Shown: positions 18,635-21,626, counted from the stretch's first letter. The stretch is 64,000 nt of DNA from Escherichia coli (GCF_003334305.1 NZ_QOWS01000013.1), one strand, 5' to 3'. Notes: generated by a model not told the origin, from the letters alone. Numbers and translations: made by a program.

Positions 18635-20260
18635 ATGACAGTATTCAACAAATTTGCTAGAAGTTTTAAATCTCATTGGTTGTTGTATCTTTGTGTTATT
18701 GTTTTTGGTATTACGAACTTAGTCGCCTCTTCCGGAGCGCATATGGTTCAGCGATTGCTGTTCTTCGTCCTGACCATCCTGGTTGTTAAACGTATATCAT
18801 CCCTTCCGCTTCGCCTGCTTGTTGCCGCACCATTTGTGTTACTGACTGCGGCAGACATGAGTATTAGCCTCTATTCATGGTGTACCTTTGGTACAACTTT
18901 CAATGATGGATTTGCGATTAGTGTGCTGCAGAGTGATCCGGATGAAGTTGTCAAAATGCTGGGGATGTATATCCCTTATCTATGTGCTTTTGCTTTTTTA
19001 TCCCTTCTTTTTTTGGCAGTAATAATAAAATATGATGTTTCCTTGCCGACAAAAAAAGTGACAGGAATATTATTGCTGATTGTCATTTCGGGCAGTTTAT
19101 TTTCCGCTTGTCAATTTGCTTATAAAGATGCAAAAAATAAAAAAGCGTTCAGTCCATATATACTAGCGTCGCGATTTGCTACCTATACGCCGTTTTTTAA
19201 TCTCAACTATTTTGCTTTAGCAGCGAAAGAGCATCAAAGATTACTCTCAATTGCAAACACGGTGCCGTATTTTCAATTATCAGTCAGGGATACAGGTATT
19301 GATACCTACGTGTTGATTGTGGGGGAGTCTGTACGTGTCGACAATATGTCTTTGTATGGATATACACGCTCTACGACACCGCAAGTTGAAGCACAAAGAA
19401 AACAGATCAAACTGTTTAATCAAGCAATAAGCGGCGCACCTTACACTGCGCTGTCGGTTCCCCTTTCTTTAACTGCTGATTCTGTTTTGAGTCATGACAT
19501 TCATAATTACCCCGACAACATTATTAATATGGCTAATCAAGCAGGATTTCAGACTTTCTGGCTAAGCTCGCAATCCGCTTTTCGGCAGAATGGTACAGCA
19601 GTTACCAGTATCGCCATGCGCGCCATGGAAACAGTCTATGTCAGAGGATTTGATGAATTGTTGTTGCCGCATTTATCGCAAGCGTTACAGCAAAAGACGC
19701 AGCAAAAGAAACTGATTGTTCTTCATTTAAATGGAAGCCATGAACCGGCTTGTAGCGCCTATCCGCAATCCAGCGCCGTGTTTCAACCGCAGGACGATCA
19801 GGATGCCTGCTATGACAACTCCATTCATTACACAGACAGTTTGCTAGGTCAGGTTTTTGAATTATTAAAAGATCGCCGCGCCTCGGTCATGTATTTTGCC
19901 GACCACGGCCTGGAACGCGACCCTACGAAGAAGAACGTCTATTTTCATGGAGGCAGGGAGGCCAGCCAGCAGGCATATCATGTCCCGATGTTTATCTGGT
20001 ATAGCCCCGTTCTTGGGGATGGCGTGGATCGCACAACAGAAAACGATATCTTTTCCACTGCGTACAATAATTACCTTATTAATGCGTGGATGGGGGTAAC
20101 AAAGCCGGAACAGCCGCAAACGCTGGAGGAAGTGATTGCACACTATAAAGGAGACTCACGGGTTGTGGATGCAAACCATGATGTTTTCGATTATGTGATG
20201 CTCAGAAAGGAGTTTACAGAGGATAAGCAAGGTAACCCCACCCCTGAAGGGCAGGGTTGA
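18635..20260 (+). CDS. yhbX: Putative sulfatase/phosphoethanolamine-transferase-family inner membrane protein YhbX
   Basis: MTVFNKFARSFKSHWLL, 541 aa; N-terminal transmembrane segments plus a C-terminal sulfatase-like domain. Confidence 0.88.
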   Translation: MTVFNKFARSFKSHWLLYLCVIVFGITNLVASSGAHMVQRLLFFVLTILVVKRISSLPLRLLVAAPFVLLTAADMSISLYSWCTFGTTFNDGFAISVLQSDPDEVVKMLGMYIPYLCAFAFLSLLFLAVIIKYDVSLPTKKVTGILLLIVISGSLFSACQFAYKDAKNKKAFSPYILASRFATYTPFFNLNYFALAAKEHQRLLSIANTVPYFQLSVRDTGIDTYVLIVGESVRVDNMSLYGYTRSTTPQVEAQRKQIKLFNQAISGAPYTALSVPLSLTADSVLSHDIHNYPDNIINMANQAGFQTFWLSSQSAFRQNGTAVTSIAMRAMETVYVRGFDELLLPHLSQALQQKTQQKKLIVLHLNGSHEPACSAYPQSSAVFQPQDDQDACYDNSIHYTDSLLGQVFELLKDRRASVMYFADHGLERDPTKKNVYFHGGREASQQAYHVPMFIWYSPVLGDGVDRTTENDIFSTAYNNYLINAWMGVTKPEQPQTLEEVIAHYKGDSRVVDANHDVFDYVMLRKEFTEDKQGNPTPEGQG

Positions 20261-20267
20261 TGTCGAA

Positions 20268-21626
<1,359 letters not shown>

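Follow-up and report, generated by a model that had tools for sequence, protein, structure and literature searches.

When two genes face each other and their stop codons almost touch, where do their transcripts end, and by what means? The junction between yhbX and argG of Escherichia coli raises this question. It was analysed in a window of 64,000 nucleotides (GCF_003334305.1, NZ_QOWS01000013.1), the term denoting the whole stretch of DNA under study, with positions counted from its first letter. The stretch derives from an E. coli chromosome: an 801-bp piece over the junction matches strain A7 at 100% identity and K-12 MG1655 at 97.8%. Around the junction, the genes follow the order glmM, secG, leuU (tRNA-Leu), yhbX (+ strand), argG (- strand), metY (tRNA-Met), the rimP leader, rimP, and nusA. 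The following features define the junction:

18635-20260, + strand: yhbX coding sequence, 541 aa (open reading frame list; in the K-12 annotation, 1626 nt ending 7 bp short of argG)
20258-20260, + strand: yhbX stop codon, TGA (sequence and open reading frame list)
20261-20267, no strand: spacer between the two stop codons, TGTCGAA, 7 bp (sequence)
20268-20270, - strand: argG stop codon, TTA on the + strand and TAA on the - strand
20268-21611, - strand: argG coding sequence, argininosuccinate synthase, 447 aa (open reading frame list and K-12 annotation)

The first-pass annotation of this DNA had placed the two stop codons 7 bp apart, a placement borne out by the sequence, the open reading frame list, and the RefSeq annotation, in which the gap is identical in K-12 MG1655 and three further strains. 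The spacer is conserved in E. coli, with a T>G SNP in one sampled strain. At the scale of the species, 5179 of the 5426 complete E. coli genomes contain the 96-bp junction with full coverage and at least 96.9% identity, and the yhbX arrangement is present in about 95% of genomes. The yhbX product is a 541-aa paralog of the phosphoethanolamine transferase family; its NCBIfam matches are to EptA/CptA-type families, every one of them under the curated cut-off. The mechanically called yhbX reading frame begins upstream of the annotated start, at a TTG at 18602.

The closeness of the two genes is within expectation, and yhbX-argG is an ordinary convergent pair in E. coli. In a sample of 150 kb from the annotated K-12 genome, taken as three 50-kb stretches, there are 24 convergent gene pairs, six of which (25%) overlap or have spacers of at most 8 bp. 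These six tightest sampled pairs, like argG-yhbX, are all among the convergent excludons published for E. coli. Their spacers, in bp, are:

nimR/yeaL, -44
ynjH/nudG, -35
gstB/yliI, -4
ybiO/rlmF, -4
yoaI/yeaK, 0
ynjF/ynjE, +8

Selection on the 7-bp spacing itself was considered and is unsupported, because a quarter of the sampled pairs are equally tight and the site tolerates insertions.

The earlier annotation had further claimed that neither gene has room for a hairpin terminator. This holds for the 7-bp spacer, and no canonical terminator lies nearby: a pattern scan of both strands from 19700 to 20800 (about 500 bp on each side) returned no hairpin followed by a T-run. That scan, compared with our own, is able to miss true terminators; our second scan, covering 150 nt 3' of the argG stop, likewise returned no canonical terminator. 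Among Rfam families, a scan of 17000-23000 returned tRNAs and the rimP leader only, with none at the junction. Since the spacer is too short for a terminator, RNA polymerase transcribing argG enters the yhbX antisense strand. The claim falls short just beyond the spacer, where a stable stem-loop is predicted by folding. The features of the argG-sense RNA discussed below are:

20234-20258, - strand (argG-sense): stem-loop AACCCUGCCCU-UCA-GGGGUGGGGUU (folding)
20231, - strand: argG mRNA 3' end (Term-seq, MG1655 position 3320017)
20229, - strand: centre of a Rho termination region (MG1655 position 3320019), 2 nt from the argG 3' end
20068-20230, - strand: stretch with more C than G, a candidate rut region in the untranslated argG-sense RNA past the hairpin (C/G ratio)

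The stem-loop begins 10 nt past the argG stop, outside the spacer and within the yhbX coding sequence, where it is antisense to the last eight yhbX codons (N534-G541) and the first base of the yhbX stop. Its stem of 11 bp comprises six G-C, three G-U, and two A-U pairs and is closed by a 3-nt loop. The G-U pairs hide it from an inverted-repeat finder that requires a 6-nt exact seed, whereas folding detects it. For the 27-nt core, the folding energy is -14.2 kcal/mol, a stability reached by 7 of 200 shuffled sequences. In a sliding 27-nt scan over the 1.6 kb of yhbX antisense, the best window is at -16.6 kcal/mol and the next independent site at -8.3 kcal/mol, making the hairpin the most stable local fold over the entire yhbX antisense strand. 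Across the 64-kb window, 0.2% of 27-nt windows fold at -14 kcal/mol or lower, which corresponds to a density of about 0.45 separate sites per kb on each strand; the chance that such a site falls 50 nt or less from any one stop is about 2%.

Because its stem has G-U pairs, the hairpin is weak on the opposite strand. The same bases read in the yhbX sense fold at -8.8 kcal/mol (z -0.3). A role as the terminator of yhbX itself was therefore ruled out, the structure being weak in yhbX-sense RNA and lying before the yhbX stop. In the argG-sense RNA the stem-loop is GC-rich, and the tail that follows it is U-poor, reading UUACCUUGCUUAUCC if the stem is counted as 9 bp or ACCUUGCUU if it is counted as 11 bp. 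A partly U-rich stretch (TTGCTTAT, 5 of 8 T) begins 3 nt past the 11-bp stem; no U-tract directly follows the stem. The U-poor tail indicates that this hairpin is not a canonical intrinsic terminator. Nor does the window carry, at this junction, the single hairpin with a flanking A-tract and T-tract, serving both strands, that marks a bidirectional terminator.

Published transcript-end data place the argG 3' end at this structure. In Supplementary file 1 of Adams et al. (2021; eLife, PMC7815308), a dominant Term-seq end at MG1655 3320017 (+) is classified as "primary: argG; antisense: yhbX". It is present only on the sheet for M63 glucose (M63 0.4), a condition in which argG is derepressed, and its signal is modest, at about 900 reads in this one study (PMC7815308). 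Each string in that file consists of 50 nt upstream, the end nucleotide, and 10 nt downstream, a layout checked on metY, where the 51st base is the A of CCA. The 61-nt string of the argG end maps to 20221-20281 on the - strand of the window with one mismatch, and its nucleotide 51 puts the 3' end at 20231. The argG mRNA thus extends 37 nt beyond its stop codon and ends within the yhbX coding sequence, 3 nt downstream of the hairpin. The argG 3' end is structure-defined, because a stem-loop of -14 to -17 kcal/mol coincides with the mapped end; a steady-state 3' end just past a stable stem-loop without a U-tract is what characterises the protective stem-loop class. The first-pass annotation had overlooked this hairpin, which lies outside the spacer. 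The supplements of SMRT-Cappable-seq contain no argG or yhbX entries, and no specific report of an argG terminator was found in the literature.

The same data set connects this end with Rho. In Supplementary file 2 of that study (Adams et al., 2021; PMC7815308), position 3320019 (+) is entered as a Rho termination region that responds to bicyclomycin, with a Rho score of 3.76 (p 1.4e-7) that was computed over 800-nt windows at low counts in LB, a medium in which argG is repressed. Upstream and downstream read counts over 800 nt were 50 and 44 without bicyclomycin and 64 and 212 with it (PMC7815308). The downstream/upstream ratio thus rises from 0.88 to 3.31 and read-through increases, although antisense promoters within yhbX may be the source of the reads. 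A transcript that ends in its neighbour's coding region or by a factor-dependent route, as the first-pass annotation had proposed, agrees with the argG data: the Term-seq end lies within yhbX antisense and the Rho region is centred 2 nt away.

The RNA beyond the hairpin has the C-rich, G-poor composition of a rut region, with a modest enrichment: in 50-nt windows the C/G ratio is 1.3-2.0 up to about 200 nt past the argG stop and about 1 or lower beyond. This RNA is assumed to be untranslated since it is antisense to yhbX. According to Dar and Sorek (NAR 2018), Rho-dependent E. coli transcripts end right past stable stem-loops without U-tracts; the stem-loops shield the RNA from 3'-5' exonucleases and are followed closely by rut sites. 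On the same strand, farther along, another Rho region at 3321743 has 199 upstream reads, more than the argG-proximal region (PMC7815308). By linear offset, which presupposes that K-12 and the window differ by no insertions or deletions, it corresponds to about 18505, upstream of the yhbX start. The 199 reads of this second region point to an independent antisense RNA, and antisense RNA initiating inside the AT-rich yhbX gene probably exists. Such RNA could add to the bicyclomycin effect or, rather than argG read-through, be its source.

The origin of the tight junction becomes apparent when strains are compared. Two features are needed for this comparison:

18221-20267, no strand: low-GC variable cassette that carries yhbX, 2047 bp (breaks in homology with the alternative allele, L002 and L086)
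18092-18214, + strand: leuU tRNA-Leu (18092-18178) and its intrinsic terminator, with the stem at 18192-18209 and the T-run at 18210-18214 (Rfam, sequence, and K-12 annotation)

The GC content is 42.5% in the cassette, 52.5% in argG, and 51.4% in the whole window. On the left, the cassette is bordered by the leuU terminator, with the break between 18220 and 18221, 42 nt past leuU; on the right, it is bordered by the argG stop, with the break between 20267 and 20268, which is exact in strain KK05-19. At the same spot, 237 of 5426 E. coli genomes (about 4%) carry an alternative cassette of about 1.2 kb (37.7% GC), whose product of 317 aa has an N-terminal helix-turn-helix domain. This alternative allele has a canonical terminator 20-21 nt past the argG stop, GGCCGC-AAAT-GCGGCC followed by TTTTTT. 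The element, shared with relatives, combines an A-tract, GGCCGC...GCGGCC, and a T-tract and is of the bidirectional type.

The relatives compared are 25 Enterobacterales loci among the ArgG matches listed, from Citrobacter, Kluyvera, Pluralibacter, Enterobacter, Pseudocitrobacter, Superficieibacter, Shimwellia, Dickeya, and others. The matches listed for ArgG include no Escherichia or Salmonella species. A canonical terminator match within 150 nt past the argG stop is present at 18 of the 25 listed loci, two or three of them with weak T-tails. The same (G)GCCGC...GCGGC(C) terminator type recurs in Citrobacter (AAGGCCGCGAAAGCGGCCTTTTTT), Kluyvera, Superficieibacter, and Pseudocitrobacter. In the Enterobacter-type loci L010, L014, and L027, the leuU terminator and the tRNA come directly next. 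No YhbX homolog was found within 4 kb downstream of argG at any of the 25 Enterobacterales loci among the matches listed. Because the alternative allele and most listed relatives carry the terminator and none carries yhbX, the ancestral order, as judged from these comparisons, appears to be argG, intrinsic terminator, leuU, with the yhbX cassette having displaced the terminator up to the argG stop.

YhbX homologs were taken from a search of 50% representatives, the full search being dominated by near-identical E. coli entries. Distant homologs (46-29% identity) stop near YhbX residue 523-530, and the last 10-14 residues of YhbX, which include the hairpin codons, form a non-conserved tail. In some strains, IS1 interrupts or partly deletes yhbX, and the gene is dispensable. 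A search for the cassette on plasmids gave only misfiled chromosomes and one paralog of 68% identity. In a published study, synthetic operons with strong flanking terminators were inserted at the argG-yhbX junction, and argG was still usable as a selectable marker.

For the opposite transcript, no 3' end attributable to yhbX was called in the data of Adams et al. (2021), which cover three growth conditions, or in the SMRT-Cappable-seq supplements. One candidate was found by folding:

20270-20342, + strand: candidate yhbX 3' structure, an extended hairpin with imperfect pairing at 20270-20338 (-29.2 kcal/mol), then UUUU at 20339-20342

This candidate hairpin sits in the last 24 or so argG codons and has a z of about -2 in its 146-nt context, which is of weak significance. 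Overlap between the two transcripts is documented by ExcludonFinder (NAR 2025, PMC12288877), whose Table 1 includes argG-yhbX among 165 convergent pairs that overlap in at least 50% of 58 MG1655 transcriptomes. With this listing and an argG 3' end inside yhbX, the pair has the overlapping transcripts expected of a convergent excludon.

We consider it rather probable that the argG end arises by Rho termination inside yhbX and trimming back to the hairpin, in an ordinary tight pair created by the cassette. On this model, a low-GC yhbX cassette would have been placed between the leuU terminator and the argG stop, with loss of the canonical terminator of argG. Polymerase transcribing argG would cross the spacer into yhbX antisense, and the RNA would fold the U-poor stem-loop 10 nt past the stop. 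Rho would load on the untranslated, moderately C-rich RNA just past the hairpin and terminate transcription within the next few hundred nucleotides of yhbX antisense. 3'-to-5' exonucleases would then trim the RNA back to the protective hairpin, as in the class described by Dar and Sorek (2018). The yhbX transcript presumably runs into argG antisense until Rho and/or oncoming polymerases stop it, which would account for the transcript overlap listed for the pair. The gene layout, the hairpin, the mapped argG end, the response to bicyclomycin, the overlap of transcripts, and the two cassette alleles are observed; a specific action of Rho on argG read-through, the trimming, and the fate of yhbX RNA are inferences.

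The hairpin at 20234-20258 might instead be a weak, non-canonical intrinsic terminator of argG that releases the RNA a few nucleotides past the stem, with Rho as a back-up. A GC-rich stem of 9-11 bp, a 3-nt loop, and a stability of -14 to -17 kcal/mol would suit this role, as would the tail obtained with the 9-bp stem (UUACCUUGCUU, 6 U in 11) and the window of 5 T in 8 that lies 3 nt past the 11-bp stem. An end 3-5 nt after the stem also resembles the talB end in the table of Adams et al. (2021; PMC7815308). However, no U run comes straight after the stem, only UU and then ACC, both pattern scans were negative, and the site is in the list of Rho termination regions. Intrinsic release usually takes place 7-9 nt after the stem, whereas the end here is at 3-5 nt, and we regard intrinsic release as rather unlikely, though it is the main rival. 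A different origin for the end at 20231 would be processing alone, by RNase III acting on the sense-antisense duplex or by RNase E, from a long read-through RNA. The position of the end, right past the most stable hairpin in 1.6 kb, fits exonuclease stalling and not duplex cleavage, even though Term-seq cannot separate termination from processing and excludon-type overlaps are reported as RNase III substrates. Some termination would still be needed upstream of leuU, because the same strand has a further Rho region there. Pure processing is accordingly very improbable.

The overlap of the argG and yhbX transcripts also invites two readings that involve both genes. Head-on collisions of RNA polymerases could drive termination of both transcripts, the nascent stem-loop setting the position, and a single-molecule preprint (Wang et al., 2022) proposes collision-driven bidirectional termination that needs a nascent stem-loop. 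That model was built for intergenic bidirectional terminators with two-way hairpins, whereas the hairpin here is strong on one strand only; moreover, the failure to call a yhbX 3' end in three growth conditions hints that transcription is too sparse for frequent collisions. Collisions are thus scarcely likely to govern the argG end. The overlap might alternatively be functional, such that induction of argG in arginine limitation lowers yhbX via antisense RNA, or the reverse, a possibility compatible with the other explanations. Membership of the pair in the core E. coli excludome and an arrangement fixed in about 95% of genomes speak for such a function, but yhbX is dispensable, repeatedly hit by IS1, and absent from 4% of strains. 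In addition, terminator-flanked synthetic operons are tolerated at the junction with argG still usable as a marker, the junction resembles a by-product of cassette insertion, and no reciprocal expression data for argG and yhbX were found. A functional excludon consequently seems improbable.

A bolder extension of Rho termination with trimming to the hairpin can be put forward tentatively, as something that may well prove wrong. E. coli might be naturally polymorphic in argG termination, with a Rho-dependent, hairpin-capped end in the yhbX tail in about 95% of genomes and the ancestral intrinsic terminator in about 4%. The hairpin might have been selected after the swap as a compensatory stabiliser of the 3' end, and argG induction might be coupled to yhbX antisense. 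If this were true, the same bases would serve as a protein tail on one strand and as an RNA structure on the other.

The argG end can be placed among known systems. It resembles the Rho-dependent ends of Dar and Sorek (2018) in its stem-loop without an adjacent U-tract, an end a few nucleotides further on, C-rich RNA beyond, and bicyclomycin-sensitive read-through. In contrast to those ends, the stem-loop and presumed rut of argG lie in the coding sequence of a convergent neighbour and not in an intergenic 3' UTR, and Rho dependence was measured in LB at low coverage. Among the convergent excludons of ExcludonFinder (PMC12288877), argG-yhbX is named, on the basis of RNA-seq coverage overlap only, and, as is typical of such pairs, little intergenic DNA separates its genes.

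A third comparison concerns terminators that serve two genes at once. Ju and colleagues are reported to have described, in 2019, bidirectional intrinsic terminators between convergent genes, where polymerase collision assists termination. As in those systems, argG and yhbX are convergent and share a 3' boundary, and the ancestral or alternative allele has such an element. The allele in the window has lost it, and the remaining hairpin, unlike a bidirectional terminator, is strand-asymmetric and without flanking A and T tracts.

In E. coli, convergent genes that nearly touch or overlap, stem-loop-capped Rho-dependent ends, and excludon overlaps are all well known, and the genome-wide tables already published for Term-seq, bicyclomycin, and excludons include this pair. 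Modestly new are the replacement of a terminator by a cassette, the polymorphism between the two alleles, and the position of the argG 3' stem-loop within the non-conserved yhbX tail. The significance for the field is small. The locus offers a worked example in which a horizontal insertion beside a tRNA gene would remove a housekeeping terminator and leave the gene dependent on Rho and on a structure in the coding sequence of the newcomer. The alternative allele, with its ancestral terminator, provides a natural control. For those who use argG-yhbX as a chromosomal insertion site, it is of practical interest that the native argG 3' end lies in yhbX.

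The interval between leuU and argG is a small hotspot of integration or replacement, because in 237 of the 5426 complete genomes of E. coli another cassette stands there in place of yhbX. This alternative cassette has a low GC content of 37.7% and takes the place of the yhbX segment (window 18221-20267), as at these two E. coli loci:

L002 2826-3992, alternative cassette
L086 about 1838-3001, alternative cassette

Its product, a protein of 317 aa, has an N-terminal HTH_19/Xre-type domain as its sole domain; an NCBIfam search with this protein returned no match, and its PADLOC matches are weak and confined to the HTH. 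In most strains with the HTH cassette, argG ends in VENMENKVK-stop (L002 3993-4015), whereas the window encodes VENLENKGQ-stop (20268-20290). A few such strains, including L086, keep the K-12-type end, and this mixture indicates that recombination breakpoints close to the argG 3' end differ between strains.

In some strains, IS1 has interrupted yhbX or removed most of it, and coverage of its 3' kilobase falls below 80% in 66 of the 5179 matching genomes. The disrupted allele and the alternative starts of the gene are as follows:

L092 2462-3661, IS1-disrupted yhbX of strain KMi006 (match H63 is a further disrupted case)
Window 18602-18634, yhbX start alternatives: TTG at 18602 in the mechanical ORF (552 aa) or the RefSeq ATG at 18635 (541 aa)

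Database entries for YhbX occur at both lengths. In KMi006, yhbX is reduced to 270 nt from its 5' end and 165 nt from its 3' end, and argG is still adjoined there by the 3' remnant, including the argG 3' hairpin and the C-rich stretch. In strain LD22-1 (locus L084), a C>T substitution equivalent to window 20243, which is P537S in yhbX, replaces a C-G pair in the stem at the argG 3' end with a C-A mismatch, and no compensatory change was seen in this strain. The hairpin is thus not absolutely invariant.

On the argG-sense strand, Adams et al. (PMC7815308) list a further region of Rho termination, classed as 'orphan', at MG1655 3321743 (+); its 199 upstream reads exceed those of the argG-proximal region. 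These reads suggest a separate antisense transcript originating inside the AT-rich yhbX.

About window 18505 (-), second Rho region, placed by linear offset, upstream of the yhbX start; reads cover about 18505-19305
Window 20169-20142 and 19890-19861 (-), promoter-like sites on the argG-sense strand, from the pattern scan

Negatives of this promoter/terminator scan need caution, because it missed an evident terminator at L086 2950-2985 (-), GGGCCGCAAATGCGGCCT followed by TTTTTA, likely because greedy stem extension through G-T pairs uses up the T-run.

Beyond the argG terminator, several Citrobacter and Enterobacter-type loci carry REP/BIME-like palindromic units (e.g., GCCTGATAAG...CTTATCAGGCCTAC); none occurs at the equivalent position in the window.

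L003, L004, L011, L013 and L020, REP/BIME-like units 50-140 nt past the argG stop

Upstream of argG lie two known, ordinary features:

Window 21959-22032 (+), metY tRNA (tRNA-Met)
Window 22124-22224 (+), rimP leader (Rfam RF01770, 102.8 bits)
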